25,386 bases of DNA from a virus (Duplodnaviria; Heunggongvirae; Uroviricota; Caudoviricetes), in the IMG/VR virus record IMGVR_UViG_2563366849_000003. The stretch is one strand, 5' to 3'. This document shows positions 7,047 through 25,386 of this stretch, one piece after another. The notes beneath the pieces are model-generated. The model had not been told where the DNA came from and ran no database searches. It saw nothing but the letters and a program-made list of their open reading frames with translations. A program made the position numbers and the translations under genes. How positions within the stretch are numbered: the first letter of the stretch is position 1; every line of letters begins with the position of its first letter.

Positions 7047-8237
7047 TTAATTGCTGTTAACCGAAGTGACCAGATTTGCCAGGTATTTATCGGTAATACG
7101 CTGGCGCAGGGTCAGGTTTTCGAGAGGAGGCACCGGGGTATAGTCGTAGTCGATATACAGTTTTCCGGCCTTGAGGGTTTCCGCATCGTTGGATTCTTCG
7201 CTGAACCAGCAGGTCGCATCCACGATATAGCCGTTTGTTTTCAGCTCACGGAATTTGGCATTGATGCCGTCAACGATGTCGCGAATCAGCGTTGCGGTGA
7301 TAGGCTTGTCCACCGCCCACATATGCGCCTCAGCCATCGTGTCGGCCAGCACCTGCGCGGTGCGGGTGTAGTTTTCAAAGAGGAACAGCGGGTCATCAGA
7401 GCAGGTACGGTTACCCCAGAAGCGGAAACCGTCGCGGCAAATCAGCGTAGTGACGCCTGACTCGTTAAGCAGGTCAGCATCGGTGCCGGACTCCTGCAAA
7501 TCCCAGAATACAGAGGCACTGATGCCGGTAACACCGTTTACCCCGACATTGGACAGCGTTTTATGCCAGCCCTGCTCCTGGTCGATTTTAGCGCGCAGAC
7601 CCAGCGCACGGGCGGTGGCATACGCGGTGGCGGTGGTGCTGCTGACCGTATCCCATGCGAGGAAATCCGGCCAGATGACCATCAGCTCACGCTGGCTGAA
7701 ATTCTGGCGGTAGGCTTTCACCTCGGAAATGGTTTTACAGCCCCATGCGCTGATATACCCGAAAGCGCGCAGCTTCTGACAGACTGATGCCAGTGCAACA
7801 GCCACCTCTTTGGTGTCCAGTCCCGGCACGCCGAGAATACGCGGTTTAACACCGGTTACCGACTCTGCCGCCAGCAGGGCTTTCAGTCCGGTATACTGAC
7901 CGTTTTCGTCAGTGGTGCCGATGATATTGGAAACGGTCTGCGCGAGTTTCGTTTCTTCGTCGTCGCCGGTGCCGTCTTCCACACGCACGACAACGGTGAC
8001 CGGTTTTGACTGGTCGGCGATGGCCTGCAACGATGCCGCCAGCGTGCCTTTTTTACCAGCCTTTGCAATTGCGCTCTGCACATTGGTAATCAGCACCGGT
8101 TTATTGATGGGGAAGGTTTCCGCATCCGCATCGCTGGCCGTGCAGACCATGCCGACAATGGCTGTGGATACGGTGGAAATGACGCGGGTGCCGTCGTTAA
8201 TCTCCAGCACCTGCACGCCGTGATGATAGTCACTCAT
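7047..8237 (-). CDS. FI: Contractile tail sheath protein (P2 gpFI)
   Basis: 396-aa ORF (P2 FI is 396 aa); first gene of the FI-FII-E-T-U-D late operon. Confidence 0.9.
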   Translation of the reverse strand: MSDYHHGVQVLEINDGTRVISTVSTAIVGMVCTASDADAETFPINKPVLITNVQSAIAKAGKKGTLAASLQAIADQSKPVTVVVRVEDGTGDDEETKLAQTVSNIIGTTDENGQYTGLKALLAAESVTGVKPRILGVPGLDTKEVAVALASVCQKLRAFGYISAWGCKTISEVKAYRQNFSQRELMVIWPDFLAWDTVSSTTATAYATARALGLRAKIDQEQGWHKTLSNVGVNGVTGISASVFWDLQESGTDADLLNESGVTTLICRDGFRFWGNRTCSDDPLFLFENYTRTAQVLADTMAEAHMWAVDKPITATLIRDIVDGINAKFRELKTNGYIVDATCWFSEESNDAETLKAGKLYIDYDYTPVPPLENLTLRQRITDKYLANLVTSVNSN

Positions 8238-8330
8238 CCGTTTAACTCCGTGGTTAATGGGTGCAACTATTTTCCGTTGGGTAGTACATGAGACGCTATT
8301 TGACCTGGCTGGTCAGTGGATGAAACAACA

Positions 8331-8360
8331 GATAAAGAAAAGGCGGGCAATCTGCCCGCC
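8331..8360 (-). terminator. Intrinsic terminator-like hairpin (GGCGGGCA-loop-TGCCCGCC) followed by a T-run on the minus strand
   Basis: Perfect 8-bp GC-rich stem at 8342..8349 and 8353..8360 with TTTTCTTTATC following on the minus strand. It lies downstream of the 230-aa cargo gene and next to the late-promoter box. Confidence 0.5.
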
Positions 8361-8378
8361 TGTCCTGATTTGTACACA
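8361..8378 (-). promoter_or_regulatory. Candidate Ogr-dependent late promoter element (TGT-N12-ACA) for the FI operon (PF)
   Basis: TGTCCTGATTTGTACACA fits the P2/P4 late-promoter activator box TGT-N12-ACA, located about 125 bp upstream of the FI start. The -10 element is not confidently identified. Confidence 0.5.
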
Positions 8379-8496
8379 CTCATTTTCCGACTGACAATTT
8401 ACATAGCCAAAACGCTATCAAATCTGACTGCCTGTTTTGAGCGAAGAGGAACCTGAGATTGTGGTATGCTAATTTATGGGGAGCAGGTCAATTGTA

Positions 8497-9189
8497 TTAG
8501 TTATCTTTTTGCCTTTCTTTATCCCATTTCTTTACAGTGGTCTGATACCACTCTTCACGTGCTCGTTGTTCCTCTGCTCTGTCACTTGAATTATAGTTGT
8601 CTGTTTTAATTTTTTTGCTTCCCTGGGAAATCGGCCTCCAGTCTTCTCTAATCTTTTTCATCTGCTCAGCTATCTGTGTCATTGGACTCCTTGCACCTAA
8701 GTAGCTAACCCCCTCGAAAGAAGCCATATCATAAGAATACTCATTCCGCTCTCTTTCAGTTGAGCCCGGCTGTTTAGACCAGCTAATACTAACAGAATAA
8801 ACTTGATCTTTAATCTGGTCATACTTACAAAGACTGCTGTTGAGGGAATGGCCGTTTTTCAATACGCTAACCTTGCTAAATGGTATACCTTTATTTTTTC
8901 TATGTTCTGCATTAACCAGTGGGGGATTAAATCCGACTTCAATATCATAGGCTGGGGCATTTCCGGTATTAGCAATATTGATATCAAAATAAAAAGCAGC
9001 CCAAGAATTTGGTTCAAGAGTCACAACGACATGAGGTTGAACTGATGCGTCAACCATCCTTTTTGTCTCGTCTGCTAATAGCCTTGTTACTCTCCACAAG
9101 AAAAATGTAGCAACTGCTGTTAGCAATGCTGCCAAAGCGGAGATAAGTGTACTTACTGTGTTTATATGCTCTGCGATAAATTCGATCAT
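8497..9189 (-). CDS. Hypothetical membrane-anchored protein (230 aa), cargo gene at the P2 Z/fun position
   Basis: ATG with AAGGA Shine-Dalgarno; predicted N-terminal transmembrane helix (TVSTLISALAALLTAVATFFLW) and a charged C-terminal tail; AT-rich codon usage unlike the flanking tail genes. No family recognised. Confidence 0.6.
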   Translation of the reverse strand: MIEFIAEHINTVSTLISALAALLTAVATFFLWRVTRLLADETKRMVDASVQPHVVVTLEPNSWAAFYFDINIANTGNAPAYDIEVGFNPPLVNAEHRKNKGIPFSKVSVLKNGHSLNSSLCKYDQIKDQVYSVSISWSKQPGSTERERNEYSYDMASFEGVSYLGARSPMTQIAEQMKKIREDWRPISQGSKKIKTDNYNSSDRAEEQRAREEWYQTTVKKWDKERQKDN

Positions 9190-9680
9190 GAGTTGTCCTT
9201 GGGGGCGTACTAATTGTTTTCAATACTAAAATAGCGCCGGGCTTGAAAAATTGCACACTTATGGTTCGATTTACCTCAACAGTTAAGGCTTCTACTTCCC
9301 CCGTGCACCTCACCCAGCCCAAGACTGTATGAGGTCTGACAAAGAACTTCCTGACACTTGAAAACGAGGCAACGGCTAAGGTTTCTCGTAGGGCAAGGAT
9401 TGAATACGAAGCCTGTATATTGCTCCGCAAACGCTGCTGAGGGCAGTTTAAATGTTGGGCGTTTATGTAGCCTTTCACTCACCAGCATGAGTTCAATGTC
9501 TGTGAGTTACCGACAACAATATAAAGAGGGTGGCATCATCATATATCCAAGCTAGAGTCAAATCCTCCAACTGGTTTTATGATCAGTATCAATTGTTTGA
9601 TTATTGAACGTTTACGAAGCAGCACGGGAGCCATATAACTAATGGGCAGGTATAAGCCTGTATCACGAGGAATCAGTAAA

Positions 9681-9860
9681 ATGGCTGATGATAAGACCAA
9701 AATCGGTACCCCTGACAATGATTTAATAAGTATCAAACAGGATTACGAGAGACGTGATTGGGCTGAAAAGTTTGGAGTTAGCGAGGCCAAACTTGTTCAA
9801 GCCGTACAGGCTGTAGGTCATTCGGCTAAGAAAGTACAGGCATGGCTTAAAGACCATTAA
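9681..9860 (+). CDS. Small DUF3606-like protein (59 aa; an alternative upstream start at 9642 gives 72 aa)
   Basis: MADDKTKIGTPDNDL...DYERRDWAEKFGVSEAKLVQAVQAVG... resembles the DUF3606 pattern as I recall it (MADDK-type N-terminus, conserved Y and W). GAGGA Shine-Dalgarno 9 nt upstream of the 9681 ATG; intrinsic terminator immediately downstream. Confidence 0.55.
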   Translation: MADDKTKIGTPDNDLISIKQDYERRDWAEKFGVSEAKLVQAVQAVGHSAKKVQAWLKDH

Positions 9861-9865
9861 TATAT

Positions 9866-9889
9866 GAGCGCCTTTCTAGGCGCTTTTTT
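9866..9889 (+). terminator. Intrinsic terminator after the DUF3606-like gene
   Basis: Hairpin AGCGCC-TTTCTA-GGCGCT followed by TTTTTTC. Confidence 0.6.
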
Positions 9890-9912
9890 CTTTGTCCTTT
9901 GGGAGATGATTT

Positions 9913-10191
9913 ATGGCTAATAATTTATTTATTACTTACGACCTCATTAAAACGAAAGATTATGCGGCTGTGTATGATGCAATTAAATCTTTAGGAAATT
10001 GGGCTTTAACAACTGAATCGAACTGGTATGTTAACTGTAGTTACTCTGCCGAGGATGCAGCCAAAATTGTGAGGGCGGTCATGGATAGTGATGATAAGCT
10101 TATTGTTGTAGACGCAACCAATAACTCAGCTTATTGGTACAATCTCTCAGATGAAGTTAGTAACCAAATTCTGACTGAGTGGAACAAGTAA
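9913..10191 (+). CDS. Hypothetical small protein (92 aa)
   Basis: ORF with GGGAGA Shine-Dalgarno 7 nt upstream of the ATG and a strong intrinsic terminator directly after the stop. No family recognised. Confidence 0.5.
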   Translation: MANNLFITYDLIKTKDYAAVYDAIKSLGNWALTTESNWYVNCSYSAEDAAKIVRAVMDSDDKLIVVDATNNSAYWYNLSDEVSNQILTEWNK

Positions 10192-10193
10192 TT

Positions 10194-10220
10194 AAAGGGG
10201 GTGGATAGCCCCCTTTAATT
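10194..10220 (+). terminator. Intrinsic terminator after the 92-aa gene
   Basis: AAAGGGGG-TGGATAG-CCCCCTTT hairpin followed by an AT-rich stretch. Confidence 0.65.
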
Positions 10221-10410
10221 CAGAAACTATCATGATTGAAACATTAAATATACTGGGTTAATTCTTTCATCCTTGCTCCCTTGCTATATGTCCTGAAAGC
10301 GTCCTTTTTAGCCTTCTGCTCAGTATGTCCGGTAATGGCACAGAGCGGACTGCCAGATTAGGCTTTACTCTGTGCCATAGATATGTAAGCTCCCACCAGA
10401 GCTCATACAC

Positions 10411-10938
10411 TTATTGCGGCATTTCCGGCCATTCGGGATTTGCAGGATCCACACGACTGACCAGAACGCTGTAGCGTTCCCATGCTTCCAGTCGTGTGCG
10501 TTCCTCGTCTGTTGCCATATTCAGCCTGACAGCGCGTTCCAGCGGTTGGATGACTGATTCAGCTTCGGAAAGCAATGCGGCCTTTTGTGATTCGGCCTGT
10601 TGTTGTTGCTCGTCTGCCGTATAAATCCGTTTAACCACAGCTCCGTCCCTAAACATCCACTTACCGGAATCATCAGCGCAGCGGTTGGCTGTAATATCTG
10701 GAACCTCAACGACGCTATAACCTTCAGGGTTAAGCGTGGAGGCATCTTTGGTGATGGCGACAATAATATTATTTGCATCGTAAACAATCTTTATTGTGTC
10801 TGGCTGAAAGTTTTTCACTTCCTCATACCAGTTTTTTCCGTCTTCGGACCATAACCAGATAACATCAAAATTCTTTGTTAGCTGATATTGTTCTTTTGTT
10901 TTTGGATTTCCAGACTTAATATTTTTTAAATGCTGCAT
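10411..10938 (-). CDS. G: Tail fiber assembly protein (P2 gpG)
   Basis: 175-aa ORF (P2 G is 175 aa) immediately downstream of H. Confidence 0.85.
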
Positions 10939-16718: not shown

Positions 16719-17792
16719 TTACGCTCCCGGCTCTGCGGTCGCCCTGGCCGGTGTGGAGAAATCACCGACCTTAATTTTTTCCACCAGACAACCGGCGGCG
16801 TAGTCTTCCACCACGTAATCAATGTTCATTGACTCGTAGTTCTCCACGCGGTCGAGTTTCGGGTTTTCCACAATCACGCGGCGATGGCTGTCATCCATGT
16901 AGTAGATGGACAGGTTTTCCAGCTTCGTGATGAGCATCGCATCCGCCGGGAAGTACGGGACGCGTACCGCCGGCAGGTTACCGATGCGTTTCTGGCTGAT
17001 GATGACGTCAGCGGCCAGCATCTCGCTGTTGTCCTGCTCCTTGTTGACGATAGGGAAATACTTGTCCGCCAGTAGCTGACGTCCCACAATCACCACAAGG
17101 TCAGGGTCTTCCTGATACCACGGCTCAATCAGGTTGTTGGTCGCATCCATCACCAGTGCATCGAGGCTGGCATAATCACCGCCCTTACCCACGCGGATGA
17201 CCTCAGAGGTCGTGCGACCTTCCTCGTCAGTGACCTTGCTCATCACGCGCGCCGGGGCTTCATTGCGGTATTTCTGCAGCCAGCCGACCGCCACATCCTG
17301 CAGCATCGGATTACTGCTGCGGTCAGAGGTTTCGGCACGCCTCACGCCGTTAAAACCGGCCATGATGAAATCAAGGGACTGGCGTTTGATAATGGCGTTA
17401 CGGACACGGAGCTGGAAATCCTGATAACGCGCCCACAGGTCCAGCGTTTTGTAGCGGATATAAAAATCGAAGTTAATCTGGTCGCATTCGTACTTGTTTG
17501 ACGCCAGCTTCGAGAAGTCCTTCGGCTGACGCTCGGTGCCACCGGCGGTGTCGGTGGTGCTGGCGATGGAGCCGGTGACACCGATACCAATTTTTTCCCC
17601 TTTCATTTCGCTGACCGGCACAATGTTGATGCGGGTCAGAAAGTCAGAGGACTCCTGCATGGTGTTCATCAGGGTCTGGGTGACCGACGGTTCAACGGTG
17701 AATTTTTTCGACACATCACCGGCGTCGATGCCGTTCAGTTCGGCAACACGGGACAGGTAGGCATTAAATTTAAAGCGGGTTTCCTGGCGCAT
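16719..17792 (-). CDS. N: Major capsid protein (P2 gpN)
   Basis: 357-aa ORF (P2 gpN is 357 aa). Confidence 0.9.
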   Translation of the reverse strand: MRQETRFKFNAYLSRVAELNGIDAGDVSKKFTVEPSVTQTLMNTMQESSDFLTRINIVPVSEMKGEKIGIGVTGSIASTTDTAGGTERQPKDFSKLASNKYECDQINFDFYIRYKTLDLWARYQDFQLRVRNAIIKRQSLDFIMAGFNGVRRAETSDRSSNPMLQDVAVGWLQKYRNEAPARVMSKVTDEEGRTTSEVIRVGKGGDYASLDALVMDATNNLIEPWYQEDPDLVVIVGRQLLADKYFPIVNKEQDNSEMLAADVIISQKRIGNLPAVRVPYFPADAMLITKLENLSIYYMDDSHRRVIVENPKLDRVENYESMNIDYVVEDYAAGCLVEKIKVGDFSTPARATAEPGA

Positions 17793-18705: not shown

Positions 18706-18878
18706 TGTCAGGAGTCCTGAATAGTGATTAGAGGAGTCACATGTCGGCATCAGTTTCCCGACGATGCGCATCCTCCGCCATCAGTCCCGGATGGCTTATC
18801 ACTGACACAACAGCACCTTAGCGAATCGCGGGGCGCGACTCAGTAGCCTTGCCGTGTATTCATCACGGCGAGGTATTC
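18706..18878. promoter_or_regulatory. Divergent late-promoter region (PO leftward, PP rightward) by synteny
   Basis: Intergenic region between divergently oriented O and P, as in P2. I found no perfect TGT-N12-ACA box here, so this is assigned by position only. Confidence 0.3.
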
Positions 18879-20651
18879 ATGACCATCACCACAGACACCA
18901 CTCTTTTACACGACCCGCGTCGTCAGGCGGCGCTGCTGTACTGGCAGGGGTTTTCCGTGCCGCAGATTGCCGCCATGTTGCAGATGAAACGCCCGACGGT
19001 GCAGAGCTGGAAACAGCGCGACGGCTGGGACAGCGTTGCCCCCATCAGCCGTGTCGAAATGAGTCTGGAAGCGCGGCTGACCCAGCTCATCATCAAACCG
19101 CAGAAAACCGGCGGTGACTTCAAGGAAATTGACCTGCTCGGACGCCAGATTGAACGACTGGCACGGGTCAACCGTTACAGTCAGACCGGCAACGAGGCAG
19201 ACCTTAATCCGAACGTCGCTAACCGCAACAAAGGCGGGCGTCGCAAACCGAAAAAGAATTTTTTCAGTGACGAGGCCATCGAAAAGCTGGAGCAGATTTT
19301 CTTTGAGCAGTCTTTCGAATATCAGTTGCACTGGTATCGCGCCGGGCTTGAGCACCGCATCCGCGATATCCTGAAATCCCGCCAGATTGGCGCAACGTTT
19401 TATTTTTCCCGCGAGGCGCTGCTGCGCGCCCTGAAAACCGGCCATAACCAGATTTTTCTGTCGGCCAGTAAAACGCAGGCGTATGTGTTCCGTGAATACA
19501 TCATCGCCTTTGCCCGGCTGGTTGACGTTGACCTGACCGGTGACCCGATTGTCCTGGGCAATAACGGCGCAAAACTGATTTTTCTCGGCACCAACTCCAA
19601 CACCGCACAGAGCCATAACGGCGACCTGTACGTCGACGAGATTTTCTGGATCCCGAATTTTCAGGTACTGCGTAAGGTGGCATCAGGTATGGCCTCACAG
19701 AGTCACCTGCGCTCGACCTATTTCTCCACCCCGTCCACGCTGGCGCACGACGCCTACCCGTTCTGGTCCGGTGAACTGTTTAACCGGGGACGCGCCAGCG
19801 CCGCCGAACGCGTGGAAATCGACGTCAGTCATAACGCCCTTGCCGGTGGGCTTCTCTGTGCGGACGGCCAGTGGCGGCAGATTGTCACCATTGAGGACGC
19901 CCTGAAAGGCGGCTGCACATTGTTCGACATTGAGCAGCTTAAACGCGAAAACAGCGCCGACGATTTTAAAAACCTGTTCATGTGTGAATTTGTTGACGAC
20001 AAGGCGTCGGTGTTCCCGTTCGAGGAGCTGCAACGCTGCATGATCGACACGCTGGAAGAATGGGAAGACTATGCGCCGTTTGCCGCAAATCCGTTCGGCT
20101 CACGTCCGGTATGGATTGGTTACGACCCGTCACACCGTGGCGACAGCGCCGGATGTGTGGTACTGGCACCGCCGGTGGTGGCCGGTGGCAAATTCAGAAT
20201 ACTTGAGCGTCACCAGTGGAAAGGCATGGACTTTGCCACTCAGGCTGAATCCATCCGCAAACTCACCGAAAAATATAACGTCGAATACATCGGTATTGAT
20301 GCCACCGGCCTCGGTGTCGGCGTGTTCCAGCTCGTGCGCTCGTTCTATCCCGCCGCGCGCGATATCCGCTACACGCCGGAAATGAAAACCGCAATGGTGC
20401 TCAAGGCAAAAGACGTTATCCGCCGTGGCTGTCTGGAATATGACGTCAGCGCCACCGACATCACCAGCTCGTTTATGGCTATCCGCAAGACCATGACCAG
20501 CAGCGGACGCAGTGCCACCTATGAGGCCAGCCGCAGCGAGGAAGCCAGCCACGCCGACCTCGCCTGGGCGACCATGCACGCCCTGTTAAATGAGCCACTC
20601 ACCGCCGGTATCAGCACCCCGCTGACATCCACCATTCTGGAGTTTTACTGA
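18879..20651 (+). CDS. P: Terminase large (ATPase) subunit (P2 gpP)
   Basis: Start placed at MTITTDTTLLHD (18879) to give 590 aa, the P2 gpP size; the stop overlaps the Q start (ATGA). Confidence 0.88.
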   Translation: MTITTDTTLLHDPRRQAALLYWQGFSVPQIAAMLQMKRPTVQSWKQRDGWDSVAPISRVEMSLEARLTQLIIKPQKTGGDFKEIDLLGRQIERLARVNRYSQTGNEADLNPNVANRNKGGRRKPKKNFFSDEAIEKLEQIFFEQSFEYQLHWYRAGLEHRIRDILKSRQIGATFYFSREALLRALKTGHNQIFLSASKTQAYVFREYIIAFARLVDVDLTGDPIVLGNNGAKLIFLGTNSNTAQSHNGDLYVDEIFWIPNFQVLRKVASGMASQSHLRSTYFSTPSTLAHDAYPFWSGELFNRGRASAAERVEIDVSHNALAGGLLCADGQWRQIVTIEDALKGGCTLFDIEQLKRENSADDFKNLFMCEFVDDKASVFPFEELQRCMIDTLEEWEDYAPFAANPFGSRPVWIGYDPSHRGDSAGCVVLAPPVVAGGKFRILERHQWKGMDFATQAESIRKLTEKYNVEYIGIDATGLGVGVFQLVRSFYPAARDIRYTPEMKTAMVLKAKDVIRRGCLEYDVSATDITSSFMAIRKTMTSSGRSATYEASRSEEASHADLAWATMHALLNEPLTAGISTPLTSTILEFY

Positions 20652-21679
20652 TGAGCAAGAAAAAAGGGAAAACACCGCAACCTGCGGCAAAAAAAATGAC
20701 CGCCAGCGCCCCGAAAATGGAGGCATTCACCTTTGGTGAGCCGGTGCCGGTACTCGACCGGCGTGACATTCTGGATTACGTCGAGTGCATCAGTAACGGC
20801 AGATGGTATGAGCCACCGGTCAGCTTTACCGGTCTGGCGAAAAGCCTGCGTGCTGCCGTGCATCACAGCTCACCGATTTACGTCAAACGTAATATTCTGG
20901 CTTCAACGTTTATCCCGCATCCGTGGCTTTCCCAGCAGGATTTCAGCCGCTTTGTACTGGATTTTCTGGTGTTCGGTAATGCGTTTCTGGAAAAGCGTTA
21001 CAGCACCACCGGTAAGGTCATCAGACTGGAAACCTCACCGGCAAAATATACCCGCCGTGGCGTGGAGGAGGATGTTTACTGGTGGGTGCCGTCCTTCAAC
21101 GAGCCGACACCCTTCGCGCCCGGCTCCGTGTTTCACCTGCTGGAGCCGGATATCAATCAGGAGCTGTACGGCCTGCCGGAATATCTCAGCGCCCTTAACT
21201 CTGCCTGGCTGAATGAGTCGGCCACGCTGTTCCGCCGCAAGTATTACGAAAACGGCGCTCATGCCGGATACATCATGTACGTCACTGATGCCGTGCAGGA
21301 TCGCAACGATATCGAAATGCTTCGCGAAAACATGGTCAAGTCGAAAGGCCGCAACAACTTTAAAAACCTGTTTCTCTATGCCCCACAGGGGAAAGCCGAC
21401 GGCATCAAAATTATCCCCCTCAGTGAAGTGGCGACGAAGGACGATTTTTTTAATATCAAAAAAGCCAGCGCCGCTGACCTGCTGGACGCGCACCGCATCC
21501 CCTTTCAGTTGATGGGCGGCAAGCCGGAGAACGTCGGGTCGCTGGGTGATATTGAGAAAGTGGCAAAGGTCTTTGTCCGCAATGAGCTTATCCCGCTACA
21601 GGACAGGATCCGCGAGATAAACGGCTGGCTCAGCGCCGAAGTTATTCAATTCAAAAATTACTCTTTAGACGATAATTAA
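20651..21679 (+). CDS. Q: Portal protein (P2 gpQ)
   Basis: 342-aa ORF (P2 gpQ is about 344 aa), translationally coupled to P. Confidence 0.88.
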   Translation: MSKKKGKTPQPAAKKMTASAPKMEAFTFGEPVPVLDRRDILDYVECISNGRWYEPPVSFTGLAKSLRAAVHHSSPIYVKRNILASTFIPHPWLSQQDFSRFVLDFLVFGNAFLEKRYSTTGKVIRLETSPAKYTRRGVEEDVYWWVPSFNEPTPFAPGSVFHLLEPDINQELYGLPEYLSALNSAWLNESATLFRRKYYENGAHAGYIMYVTDAVQDRNDIEMLRENMVKSKGRNNFKNLFLYAPQGKADGIKIIPLSEVATKDDFFNIKKASAADLLDAHRIPFQLMGGKPENVGSLGDIEKVAKVFVRNELIPLQDRIREINGWLSAEVIQFKNYSLDDN

Positions 21680-21698
21680 CCCAATATTTAGATGATAA

Positions 21699-21724
21699 TT
21701 AGCCCTAGCATTTGCCGGGGCTAA
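21699..21724. terminator. Hairpin (TTAGCCC-loop-GGGCTAA) between convergent Q and the cargo operon; probable bidirectional terminator
   Basis: 7-bp stem with an 11-nt loop, with a T-run on the plus side (GGATTTTATTTTTT) and an AT-rich stretch on the minus side. Confidence 0.45.
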
Positions 21725-21737
21725 TAATTGCAGGATT

Positions 21738-22310
21738 TTATTTTTTCATATTGTATATAAAGTCACAAATATGCACCAGTGATAATCTGTTATAGTTTTC
21801 CAATGTAAACACAGGATAATTATAGCAAATTTCAGGAGGAGGCAATTGCGAGCGAACAGTTGTTTTTTTAGCTGATTGCTGCCTCCTCGATAATTTACTT
21901 ATTACACCAATGTAATCCACTTTTCTTGACAAATGCCCATGTAAATTCAATACAGAATATAGCCACTTACAAAAATGAATGCCAGTAACTACCTGTTTAG
22001 CCGCACCATTTGAGTTATAAGATTTGAGATCTATTACGATAAAATAATCTACGTCTTTGTGCGACGTAACAAAAATTCCATCACAAACAGAGCATACTCC
22101 TGGTAAAGCAGAAGATTTTAAAAATTTCCAGACTGGTTTAGAAATACTATTAGAATCTAGCGAAAATCCATAGATACCATTTCCGTTTACCAGTAATTTT
22201 TTATTTGTAGCACCTGGGTTCTCTTCGCATACAACCCAGCATTCCTGCTCTCGCATTAATTGAAATGTAGGATCGATGCAACTTTGTATTACATTGATAA
22301 TATTACTCAT
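21738..22310 (-). CDS. Hypothetical Cys/His-rich protein (190 aa), partner of the upstream ATPase; candidate effector
   Basis: The start ATG (22310..22308) overlaps the last codons of the ATPase gene (GATGAGTAA), indicating translational coupling. AT-rich. Contains CxxxC (res 24-28), CxxC (73-76), EE (29-30) and DVD (86-88) motifs. No family confidently recognised. Confidence 0.6.
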   Translation of the reverse strand: MSNIINVIQSCIDPTFQLMREQECWVVCEENPGATNKKLLVNGNGIYGFSLDSNSISKPVWKFLKSSALPGVCSVCDGIFVTSHKDVDYFIVIDLKSYNSNGAAKQVVTGIHFCKWLYSVLNLHGHLSRKVDYIGVISKLSRRQQSAKKTTVRSQLPPPEICYNYPVFTLENYNRLSLVHICDFIYNMKK

Positions 22311-23736
22311 CTACATCCTCACTATCAGAGGCATTCTCCACCAAGGAGTAATATATTTCATCATTATCGTCATTAATGGCATTAATTACTTCATCAAAAG
22401 TTACAGCATTAATCCCTTCATTTGACTTCTGCATTTCATTGACTGAGCCATTATCAAATAGATACGCAGCGACTAGGTTAGAGTCTAAAATTGAGTCGAT
22501 GCTAATCCCTTGCTTCTGCATGATAGCGTTTCGTTTTTCAATCATATTTTCAGAAACGCCATGCAACATAATCAAGCTATTGATTTCTTTCACAAAATAA
22601 TCACTGTGAGTACTAACAATAACCCGAATACCAGAGTTAACTAGCTTTGCTAAAAATCTTGCAATTACTCGCTGATTTGACGGGTGTAAATTTAACTCGG
22701 GTTCGTCAATCATTAAAATATCACCAGTTTTTGCTTGGTGCTCTAAATAAAACCACAGGCCAAACAAACTTTTAACAGTGGATGACGATAAATGAAGTTC
22801 AATTTTACTTGCAGGTGTCTTACCTTTCTTATACGTTGAAAAATAAATCTGCCCTTCAGGATCAACTGAATATTTTCCTGAAATTATTTTTTTTACTTCT
22901 TCTGCTAATTTATGAAATTGGCCATTTTTATTTTTCCTATTAACCTTAATTTCATTAAGCCAGTCTATGTAATTTGCTATAGGAGCAGAATACTTAGACT
23001 TCATTACATCCATTAATAGTGAGTTCAGATCGAACTGTTCTTTTGAGGCGTGGTGCAATAACGCAGTTCTTCTGGAACTTAATTCATTGAAAAAAAGGTG
23101 CAAGCCATTTCTTTCTGCGGGAATTAAAAATGCTGGGCTTTCATCATACTCTATCTTTAATAACTGACTTAGAGTTAAGTTTATAAACCCATCAATTCTG
23201 GGGAAAGCAGAATCTAGCAGCGTCATTTGTATGATATTGCTATTTTTATCTTTGGATAATAGCATTACTTCTTTTTTGCCGGTTCCTATGACGAGGCTAA
23301 CATCCAATTTTTTTTCATAAACACTTGATACTAATGATTCTTCATCTATAACCCAGTCAAATGTTGAATTAGAAAAAATTTCCTTATCATTAGTGTTGAA
23401 TACATCTTTAAGCATTAAAGATGAATCTTTATTAAATTCTCTTTTGATTAACGTAAAATTATCTTTTATCCACTCAATTACATCTAATTCAAACTTACCA
23501 TTTTCACGAAGAGTTTTGGCAAAATTTGCAACTTGAGGCAATTTTAAAGATGGTGATGGCATATTTAGGAAGCCATATAACCCATACATAACCCATGTTT
23601 TACCAGTATTATTTTTTCCGCATAAAAGCGTTAAAGGTTTTGCATTAATTTCTCCTGTAGAGATACACCCAATGTTTTTAAATGAAAATCTCCATGATGC
23701 TAATTTTTTTACGTTAATTTCGCTTTGCTTTTTCAT
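22303..23736 (-). CDS. ABC/OLD-type P-loop ATPase (AAA_15/AAA_21-like), 477 aa; candidate anti-phage defence ATPase
   Basis: Walker A GKNNTGKT (res 40-47), signature-like LSSSTVKS (316-323), Walker B/D-loop DILMIDEPELNLHP (339-352), H-loop STHS (375-378), acidic C-terminal tail; AAGGAA Shine-Dalgarno; AT-rich. Confidence 0.7.
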   Translation of the reverse strand: MKKQSEINVKKLASWRFSFKNIGCISTGEINAKPLTLLCGKNNTGKTWVMYGLYGFLNMPSPSLKLPQVANFAKTLRENGKFELDVIEWIKDNFTLIKREFNKDSSLMLKDVFNTNDKEIFSNSTFDWVIDEESLVSSVYEKKLDVSLVIGTGKKEVMLLSKDKNSNIIQMTLLDSAFPRIDGFINLTLSQLLKIEYDESPAFLIPAERNGLHLFFNELSSRRTALLHHASKEQFDLNSLLMDVMKSKYSAPIANYIDWLNEIKVNRKNKNGQFHKLAEEVKKIISGKYSVDPEGQIYFSTYKKGKTPASKIELHLSSSTVKSLFGLWFYLEHQAKTGDILMIDEPELNLHPSNQRVIARFLAKLVNSGIRVIVSTHSDYFVKEINSLIMLHGVSENMIEKRNAIMQKQGISIDSILDSNLVAAYLFDNGSVNEMQKSNEGINAVTFDEVINAINDDNDEIYYSLVENASDSEDVDE

Positions 23737-23987: not shown

Positions 23988-24006
23988 GTGCTTTCCCCGC
24001 CTCGCC
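23988..24006 (-). other. P2 cos site (19-nt cohesive-end sequence GGCGAGGCGGGGAAAGCAC on the minus strand)
   Basis: Plus-strand GTGCTTTCCCCGCCTCGCC is the exact reverse complement of the P2 cohesive-end sequence as I recall it; it sits in the expected position between Q and the early region. Confidence 0.8.
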
Positions 24007-24288
24007 CGCCCGCTTCACGGGGCGGTTTTAATGCAGTTGCATAGATACTATGGATCCGCACCAGTCCTGACCGCACGCAGCCTGAACGGACATCCCCAGC
24101 GCATGCAAAAACATTCACTTGTTGCATGCATAGCTTTTTAAGTACGCCATACCGCAACTGTACATTTTTAAGCAATTGGCAACTTTAAAAAATTTACATT
24201 GCTTTCAAGACCTTATCATCCGTAGTCTCTGTTTTTTACTTTGAGCTACATCAATAAAATCTCAAACATGTTTAATGCAAAGCCCTTG

Positions 24289-24345
24289 TTACACAACATA
24301 GAATGTATGTCTAGAAACAACGACATACTATATGTTGTGTTTTTC
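24289..24345 (+). terminator. Long imperfect hairpin (ACACAACATA ... TATGTTGTGT) followed by TTTTT; possible terminator or operator
   Basis: 10-bp perfect inverted repeat (24291..24300 and 24331..24340), extended by partial pairing of the inner arms, followed by a T-run on the plus strand. Confidence 0.4.
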
Positions 24346-24406
24346 CGGCTCTCTGTTCGGTGATATGCCAAATCACTTTGCGTTTAAACAGAGCATTATT
24401 TCAGGG

Positions 24407-24421
24407 CAAGACTTCGCTCAA
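24407..24421. repeat. 15-bp direct repeat CAAGACTTCGCTCAA, copy 1
   Basis: Exact copy of the 15-mer also present at 24671..24685; the two copies flank the small ORF and its terminator. Confidence 0.6.
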
Positions 24422-24484
24422 AAGTCATTCCACCTAACAAGCGCATATACCGGTGGAAGTTGCCCTCTACTTACAGGAGGCAAT

Positions 24485-24598
24485 ATGAAGAAATGCTATT
24501 ACTGCATTCTCGTTCTGGCCCTCTTTGGCTATCCAAACGGTAGTCCGAGTGGTTTGTCAGTAAACGTCAGTAATATCAATGTCAGCATTATGCTTTAA
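24485..24598 (+). CDS. Candidate small hydrophobic peptide (37 aa)
   Basis: MKKCYYCILVLALFGYPNGSPSGLSVNVSNINVSIML; AGGAGG Shine-Dalgarno 4 nt upstream of the ATG; a strong intrinsic terminator follows at 24611..24640. Confidence 0.35.
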   Translation: MKKCYYCILVLALFGYPNGSPSGLSVNVSNINVSIML

Positions 24599-24610
24599 TA
24601 TGCTTCAAAC

Positions 24611-24640
24611 AAAAAAACCACCTGCCAGGGTGGTTTTTTT
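24611..24640 (+). terminator. Intrinsic terminator (CCACC-TGCCAG-GGTGG plus T7), possibly bidirectional
   Basis: A-run, then a 5-bp GC stem, then TTTTTTT. Confidence 0.55.
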
Positions 24641-24670
24641 GCGCCCATCATCAATACGATGAAAGACTGA

Positions 24671-24685
24671 CAAGACTTCGCTCAA
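24671..24685. repeat. 15-bp direct repeat CAAGACTTCGCTCAA, copy 2
   Basis: Exact copy of the 15-mer at 24407..24421. Confidence 0.6.
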
Positions 24686-24900
24686 GACGAATTATGCGTC
24701 GACATAAGGTTACCCGCAATGATTTTATTAGACTAAATGGATGGCCTTTTATGACCCGGATCAAACGGCTGTCCTTACCGACATGCTAGTCACTCAATAG
24801 CATTTAGCCTTCTAATTCAGCATGCTATTGACCTTCTGCTGCCCCATAACTGCTCCGCATAAGCCATTCAATGCCATATCAAATCACGTTGTGTTTTTAC

Positions 24901-25386
24901 TCAAATGGGTAACGAGAACCCCGGCCACACATCAGCGACCAGATACGTGAATTTTTTTCCGTCATAATTTACGGTTGCTCCACGCGCCAGCGCCTCAAGT
25001 TCCCATCGCTGAGGCCAGATGCCGTTCTGAGCAAGGTCAACACGGATACGGGTAATTTGCATACGCTCCGACCGGGTCAGCCTGGCCGATGGCGCTATTT
25101 CATTCGGTTTTAACGGGCTTCCGTTTCTTTGCTGACGGTTTGGTGTTCTCAGGCCGTGTTTTAATGCGCCCCTGAGCGCCCTCACGACCTCCGGGTCATT
25201 CCATTCGATAACACCGTCATCAACCAGATTAAGCACGGCTGCGGCGCGCTCAGAAGGTGTGGGAGCCGGTAACGAAGTATCACCACCGGTGAGCTTTCCA
25301 CAGTTATTGACAGGACTCCGAGGCGCGGCGATGCCGCTTTTTAAAGTCAAAGGCTCAACGACCGGCACTTTCGGCACAATGCGCCA
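24901..25386 (-). CDS. 3' part of a phage early-region gene (possibly the C-terminus of replication protein A or a neighbouring ORF); the 5' end lies beyond the window
   Basis: Minus-strand ORF open to the window edge, with phage-backbone-like GC content and the orientation expected for P2 early genes. No specific identification possible. Confidence 0.4.
   Translation of the reverse strand, partial: WRIVPKVPVVEPLTLKSGIAAPRSPVNNCGKLTGGDTSLPAPTPSERAAAVLNLVDDGVIEWNDPEVVRALRGALKHGLRTPNRQQRNGSPLKPNEIAPSARLTRSERMQITRIRVDLAQNGIWPQRWELEALARGATVNYDGKKFTYLVADVWPGFSLPI

Follow-up and report, generated by a model that had tools for sequence, protein, structure and literature searches.

A PD-T4-4-type gene pair in the portal/cos hotspot of a P2-like prophage: probable identity and predicted PD-(D/E)xK fold of its 190-residue subunit

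The 190-aa protein encoded at positions 21738-22310 on the minus strand of the DNA analysed here (a stretch of 25,386 nucleotides, in the following called the window) is most likely subunit B of a two-gene anti-phage system of the PD-T4-4 type. The two genes form an insert of low GC content in the portal/cos/gpA defence hotspot of a P2-like prophage. For this member of the PD-T4-4_B family we predict a divergent PD-(D/E)xK (restriction-endonuclease-like) fold, whose metal-binding catalytic centre would consist of D77 and D94-x-K96, assisted by Q106 and probably also by E29 and D52. Note that the predicted fold of PD-T4-4_B has already been published; peculiar to this copy are the location in the P2 hotspot and the divergence from the PADLOC model of the B subunit. 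The locus adds a P2-hotspot allele, borne by E. coli W, to the PD-T4-4 family; beyond this, it is an unremarkable example of a defence system that is already catalogued.

The gene pair and its assignment to PD-T4-4

The open reading frame is real, and a preliminary description of this DNA had given its coordinates exactly: on the minus strand, 190 codons extend from the ATG at 22310-22308 to the TAA at 21740-21738, and the plus strand is closed by many stop codons across 21738-22310. With a mass of 21.5 kDa and a pI of 9.0, the product is a basic protein. The gene is preceded by that of a 477-aa ABC-type ATPase (22303-23736, minus strand), which was assigned to PD-T4-4_A on the basis of Pfam, PADLOC and sequence motifs. 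The stop of the ATPase gene and the start of the 190-aa gene overlap by 8 nt (ATGAGTAA, 22303-22310, minus strand). This overlap, together with a Shine-Dalgarno-like GAGGA located 5 nt upstream of the ATG, suggests translational coupling of the two genes. Upstream of the ATPase gene, scanning the minus strand for consensus promoters revealed no sigma-70-like site. At the opposite end of the operon, the 58-nt gap between the 190-aa gene and the convergent portal gene, which ends at position 21679, contains a hairpin (ATTAGCCC-N12-GGGCTAAT, 21698-21725; folding energy -15.6 kcal/mol, z -1.7). It is probably the counterpart of the P2 tQ terminator and would serve both convergent transcripts.

The ATPase matches the Pfam families AAA_15 (E 6e-26) and AAA_21 (E 8e-17), in both cases above the cut-offs, and its Walker A (G40KNNTGKT), Walker B (I340LMIDE) and H-loop (S375THS) motifs are intact; the Pfam search found no other effector domain in it. 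Among the PADLOC models, PD-T4-4_A (PDLC04033) matches residues 16-465 with an E-value of 2.1e-112, and AriA (2e-29), Old (2e-15), PtuA (4e-11) and GajA (3e-10) follow as weaker matches. For the 190-aa protein, the only PADLOC match is PD-T4-4_B (PDLC04037; E 1.2e-15, 55.8 bits, residues 2-155), which is also matched by 83 of its 85 aligned relatives, the best E-value being 3e-46; the AriB, Old and GajA models did not match it. Both the A and the B model are represented by adjacent, co-oriented genes of one operon, as is characteristic of PD-T4-4. As the match to the B model amounts to only 56 bits over residues 2-155, this sequence probably belongs to a divergent subfamily of PD-T4-4_B. PARIS was also considered as an identity of the pair and rejected: the ATPase does match AriA, but its partner matches PD-T4-4_B and not AriB.

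PD-T4-4 was found in a selection for T4 resistance and validated experimentally; the system stems from an ICE-like element of E. coli ECOR58 and was listed as 'ATPase, nuclease' (Vassallo et al. 2022, PMC9519451). Phage protection was assayed for this ECOR58 copy only (PMC9519451). Both copies show the same two-gene layout, in which an ABC/AAA_15 ATPase is followed by a protein of about 190 residues, and the operons are of the same size (1973 bp here against 1999 bp in ECOR58); they differ in that the validated copy resides on the ICE-like element and the present one in a P2 prophage hotspot. For PD-T4-4B, HHpred had given weak matches to the PD-(D/E)xK families Endonuc_Holl, Herpes_UL24, PDDEXK_9 and YhcG_C, with a probability of at most 76% and confined to residues 77-106 (PMC9519451), a span that has the same numbering as D77...Q106 of the 190-aa protein. 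The ECOR58 protein RCO57988.1 was not among the cluster members of ten relatives, which are Vibrio and metagenome proteins all annotated as 'hypothetical', and protein accessions of the E. coli W copy were not found in the searchable literature.

More recent work has addressed the class of the effector. Adams et al. recognised PD-(D/E)xK residues in AlphaFold 3 models of PD-T4-4_B and assigned PD-T4-4 to one group with the WonAB system (PMC12137116). Ragucci et al. assigned PD-T4-4 to the PD-(D/E)xK class and found that a higher-order complex forms; with 11 DNA substrates, the purified EcPD-T4-4 complex showed no activity (bioRxiv 10.1101/2025.07.10.664194). One review likewise lists PD-T4-4 under PD(D/E)XK nucleases. 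In contrast, the introduction of a preprint on OLD (bioRxiv 10.64898/2026.07.10.737580) calls the effector of PD-T4-4, together with that of Septu, an HNH nuclease. This label finds no support here, as it conflicts with the conservation and fold evidence presented below as well as with PMC12137116 and 10.1101/2025.07.10.664194.

Conserved residues and predicted fold

A word-indexed search retrieved nine close homologs (54-99% identity) from E. coli, Cronobacter, Enterobacter and Pantoea, and 1.84 billion cluster representatives, searched with a profile, yielded 135 proteins at E ≤ 1e-3, almost all of which comprise 170-200 residues. A tblastn search of deposited phage genomes and plasmids with the 190-aa protein gave no match. 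All counts given below refer to an alignment of the 190-aa protein with 84 full-length relatives (85 sequences; mean column identity 22%), and all codons lie on the minus strand. D77 (codon 22080-22082) is found in 85 of 85 sequences; it follows C76, directly precedes strand 78-84 of the model described below and occupies the site of the 'PD' aspartate of PD-(D/E)xK nucleases. Q106 (codon 21993-21995) is equally invariant (85/85); it is located early in helix 103-123, a long helix that comes after the (D/E)xK strand. The (D/E)xK motif itself, D94-L95-K96 (codons 22023-22031), closes strand 87-96; position 94 is D or E throughout (85/85), and K96 is kept in 83 sequences. D52 (codon 22155-22157) belongs to an F-S-L-D motif and is acidic in 84 of 85 cases (76 D and 8 E), and E29 (codon 22224-22226), at the end of strand 24-28, is retained in 70. 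Judged by sequence, this pattern of E...D...(D/E)xK...Q is the PD-(D/E)xK signature.

Further conserved positions are W116 (74/85), C76 (69/85), H124 (57/85) and H126 (52/85). A basic loop reaching from R143 to K148 (codons 21867-21884) has the family consensus PRxxxxKGTT: R143 is present in 70 sequences, position 148 is basic in 84 (73 K and 11 R), and T151 is found in 62. Located outside the canonical PD-(D/E)xK core, the loop has the lowest confidence in the model (pLDDT of the block 73); it may be in contact with substrate or partner protein.

The structure was predicted by means of AlphaFold2, using the 85 sequences as alignment, and the resulting model is confident (mean pLDDT 93.7, pTM 0.90). 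Its elements are helix 4-11 and the strands 19-21, 24-28, 38-42 and 47-49, followed by strand 78-84, strand 87-96, the long helix 103-123 and strand 131-139, and finally by three further strands and the C-terminal helix 178-189. In the model, D77, D94-x-K96 and Q106 fit the canonical β2/β3/α2 placement of the restriction-endonuclease core. The structure prediction bears out a nuclease-class placement of the motifs, but neither the HNH-like nor the Toprim-like fold that had been proposed in the preliminary description. One feature counts against a canonical core: the glutamate of PD-(D/E)xK enzymes is usually located on helix α1, whereas E29 is found on a β-strand of the model.

This position of E29, on a strand and not on helix α1, also distinguishes the protein from the solved PD-(D/E)xK nuclease domains of McrC, FokI (cleavage domain), NucS and Can2. 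In addition, β-hairpins at the N-terminus and a β-sheet and a helix at the C-terminus of the 190-aa protein are extra to these domains; identity to them is only 7-16%, without sequence-level similarity, and an hhalign comparison with McrC gave a probability of 0.1. No Pfam or NCBIfam model matched the 190-aa protein. When all 85 aligned members were compared with Pfam, nothing was found at E ≤ 0.1 except for marginal matches of HSDR_N_2 (0.036) and RE_LlaJI (0.067), each in one of the 85. The family profile had no match under E 0.7 among all PDB sequences, and Foldseek had none at E < 1e-3 for the model in PDB and BFVD.

The preliminary description had proposed a compact metal-dependent nuclease that acts as effector of the ATPase. 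This general idea is supported by the membership in PD-T4-4_B, the pairing with the ATPase and the invariant nuclease signature; the two folds suggested for it are not. Among the residues on which they were based, C24, C28, E29, E30, C73, C76, H84, D86, D88, D94 and H112 are present as listed, and the last two histidines are found at 124 and 126 instead of 125 and 127. When the protein was shuffled 20,000 times, 21% of the resulting sequences had two or more Cx2-4C pairs, 15% had EE and 26% had DxD, so that each motif taken alone is within chance expectation; all of them together occurred in 0.9% of the shuffles, a combination that had been picked post hoc. Only E29, C76 and D94 proved to be conserved, H124 and H126 partly so. 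The importance attached to the others was not confirmed by the homologs: C24 and C73 are kept in 8 of 85 sequences each, H112 in 10, D86 and H84 in 17 each and D88 in 22, and C28 and E30 are variable. The residues of greatest weight, D77, K96, Q106 and D52, had been missing from the list. As far as the alignment can tell, the residues of the supposed zinc cluster and of the DxD motif are lineage-specific.

These data bear directly on both folds. In a degenerate HNH-like zinc nuclease, the zinc would be held by C24/C28 and C73/C76, with a histidine as general base. The protein does contain two Cys pairs and five histidines, and the OLD preprint assigns HNH to PD-T4-4; however, C24, C28, C73 and H84 vary as described, two Cx2-4C pairs are as frequent in shuffled sequences as stated above, none of the 85 members has a Pfam HNH match, and three other papers class the effector as PD-(D/E)xK. 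The features that define HNH nucleases, a ββα-metal core with conserved catalytic His and Asn/His and often two CxxC zinc pairs, were not recognised as such in the 190-aa protein, and we consider an HNH nuclease extremely improbable. The minimal Toprim-like nuclease, in which E29 would provide the glutamate and D86-V-D88 the DxD motif, as in AriB of PARIS or in the OLD and GajA domains, deserves just as little credence. It would agree with the conservation of E29 and with the relationship of the ATPase to AriA, Old and GajA, whose ATPases are paired with Toprim; but the two aspartates are among the poorly kept positions, no member has a Toprim or DUF4435 match in Pfam, and the PADLOC models of AriB, Old and GajA miss the protein. 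The combination of conserved Glu, DxD and Rossmann-like fold that marks Toprim was not detected. With HNH and Toprim rejected, conservation and model point to a divergent PD-(D/E)xK fold of the 190-aa protein. At this level of prediction, the nuclease fold of the ATPase partner in the P2-like prophage is probably PD-(D/E)xK, in agreement with two experimental papers and against the statement of one 2026 preprint.

Possible mode of action

The WonAB system of the Vibrio cholerae WASA-1 prophage (Adams et al. 2025) resembles the gene pair in that a prophage-borne OLD-family ABC ATPase is combined with a small nuclease of a PD-(D/E)xK variant, and its authors group it with PD-T4-4. Its catalytic Lys is essential, as the exchange K71A in WonB abolishes both defence and toxicity; the ATPase is needed for nuclease activation, since WonB toxicity requires active WonA; and infection is aborted (PMC12137116). 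Upon WonB action, translation stops and genomic DNA stays intact (PMC12137116). WonB is smaller than the 190-aa protein (16 kDa, with K71 as catalytic residue), and inserts and C-terminal extension of the ATPase differ, according to the authors. None of the 135 profile hits has its motif Lys near position 71; as WonB, which was sought by the position of this Lys only, was not detected among them, the analogy to WonAB is architectural.

The family, the conserved operon, the predicted fold class and the conserved catalytic signature follow from the results given above; we infer a nuclease activity of B, its control by the ATPase and an abortive outcome, in analogy to WonAB and to other OLD-family ATPase/nuclease pairs. 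A dimer of the 477-aa ABC ATPase would bind B and hold it inactive. The ATPase would sense an infection cue, and binding or hydrolysis of ATP would then license B, which would cut nucleic acid and in this way abort the infection.

With respect to the substrate, RNA has to be taken seriously, because the EcPD-T4-4 complex cut no DNA and WonB arrests translation without DNA degradation. By analogy, an RNA target of B (tRNA or rRNA) and a DNA target appear about equally likely. A more specific proposal, to which we give somewhat less than even chances, is that the PD-(D/E)xK effector is an RNase acting on tRNA or rRNA and not a DNase, and that, once licensed by the ATPase, it stops translation, as has been suggested for WonB and, more recently, for OLD and PARIS. 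If true, this would account for the lack of DNA cleavage by the reference PD-T4-4 complex in vitro, and it would extend the theme of an ABC ATPase sensor combined with a translation-targeting nuclease to a third, unrelated nuclease fold.

Two further explanations concern the role of B rather than its fold. The protein could be nuclease-like in fold only and act as a sensor that binds nucleic acid, or serve the ATPase as an adaptor, with the toxic activity residing elsewhere. Both the lack of cleavage of all 11 DNA substrates by the purified EcPD-T4-4 complex and the lack of a strong structural or profile match to characterised enzymes would be compatible with such a role. We nevertheless regard it as unlikely: loss of the D...(D/E)xK residues is the rule in PD-(D/E)xK domains that have become inactive, but here these residues are invariant in 85 sequences of about 22% identity; the equivalent Lys is essential to defence and toxicity in the architecturally related WonAB; and the ATPase offers no other effector domain to which the toxic activity could be ascribed. 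There is a similarly small chance that the pair is a simple toxin-antitoxin system, in which B is a constitutively active toxin sequestered by the ATPase until infection depletes or removes the latter. Overlapping, co-transcribed genes are in line with this arrangement, the Pfam text for AAA_21 reads 'putative AbiEii toxin, Type IV TA system', and overproduced WonB is toxic. However, WonB is not toxic without WonA or with ATPase-dead WonA, and the authors rule out simple sequestration (PMC12137116); moreover, a Cronobacter prophage described below combines a split ATPase gene with an intact B gene, a state that cells would not survive if B acted as a free toxin. The dependence of WonB on active WonA and the state of the Cronobacter locus make simple sequestration unlikely, and licensing of the B nuclease by the ATPase is the reading that we prefer.

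Related systems share parts of this logic. PARIS (AriA/AriB), OLD and GajA belong to the same OLD-type ABC ATPase family and combine a sensor ATPase with a nuclease effector, and the old gene of P2 itself occupies the same hotspot as the PD-T4-4-type pair. Their nuclease is a Toprim domain (DUF4435 in AriB), either fused or separate, whereas the 190-aa effector exhibits neither signature nor fold of Toprim. Septu (PtuA/PtuB) likewise consists of an ABC ATPase and a small nuclease, and the PtuA models match the 477-aa ATPase weakly; PtuB, however, is an HNH nuclease, and HNH features are not conserved in the family of the 190-aa protein. For mutagenesis, D77, D94, K96 and Q106 and further E29 and D52 are the residues worth exchanging, and C24, C28, C73, D86 and D88 can serve as negative controls.

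Prophage context and relatives of the operon

The two-gene cargo has a GC content of 33%, as compared to 54% for the surrounding P2-like phage region, in which the genes of capsid N (16719-17792), scaffold O, terminase P (18849-20651) and portal Q (20651-21679) flank it on one side. The slot between portal gene Q and replication gene A is known as P2 defence hotspot #1 (Rousset et al.; Vassallo et al.). On the other side, the cargo is bounded by an exact P2 cos core (GGCGAGGCGGGGAAAGCAC, 23988-24006, minus strand; 0 mismatches, 0.01 expected by chance). With this core upstream of the ATPase gene, the insertion site of the operon is the interval between portal gene Q and cos, which measures 2,308 nt here and 168 nt in the P2 reference. 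The old/tin cargo of P2 itself presumably lies on the gpA side of cos; with the present operon on the portal side, both sides of cos would accept cargo.

A 2.26-kb stretch comprising the locus occurs in 19 of 5,426 complete E. coli genomes, in all of them on the chromosome. Among these is strain W, whose copy has 99.8% DNA identity to the window and is annotated as 'AAA family ATPase' and 'hypothetical protein', located between the portal gene and replication gene A; the derivatives KO11FL and LY180 carry the locus as well. Consequently, it may affect the phage sensitivity of these strains. The same gpA-[A-B]-portal slot holds homologs in Pantoea (54% identity) and Cronobacter (67%). More distant B homologs, with 23-29% identity, are encoded on unrelated metagenomic or genomic contigs directly downstream of a 436-441-aa AAA_15/AAA_21 ATPase, with which their genes overlap by 8-14 nt; these ATPases are 42-45% identical to the 477-aa ATPase, and restriction-modification genes lie alongside. 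The adjacency of A and B is the same in five further loci, down to 23% identity of B. That the pairing with the ATPase is kept in distant relatives indicates an ancient and obligate association of A and B, in which B diverges faster than A.

In the P2-like prophage of Cronobacter sakazakii GCA_003207055.1 (L011, 3570-5008), the ATPase is split into two open reading frames of 143 aa and 322 aa, and the B gene, whose product is 67% identical, is intact. This example suggests that B alone is tolerated.

Some observations concern other parts of the window. A region of about 900 bp (24007-24900), which separates cos from the 3' end of the replication gene gpA (24901-25377, minus strand), has 35-46% GC and is devoid of annotated genes in E. 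coli W; its sole notable open reading frame, which encodes 88 aa (24332-24598, plus strand), has no Pfam match. The region may be a remnant of cargo on the old/tin side. A second stretch of lowered GC content (about 40%) is found at the position of hotspot #2 (Z/fun; 8240-10410), between the genes of the tail sheath (7047-8237, minus strand) and of tail-fibre assembly (10411-10938, minus strand). It contains a 230-aa open reading frame without Pfam or PADLOC match (8497-9189, minus strand), the gene of a 72-aa DUF3606 protein (9642-9860, plus strand; E 4e-18) and a 92-aa open reading frame (9913-10191, plus strand), and is a candidate for uncharacterised defence cargo. Just beyond the end of the P2-like prophage, following a host open reading frame at 1-1362, the CyaR/RyeE sRNA gene (Rfam RF00112, 100.7 bits) is located at 1445-1530 on the plus strand.
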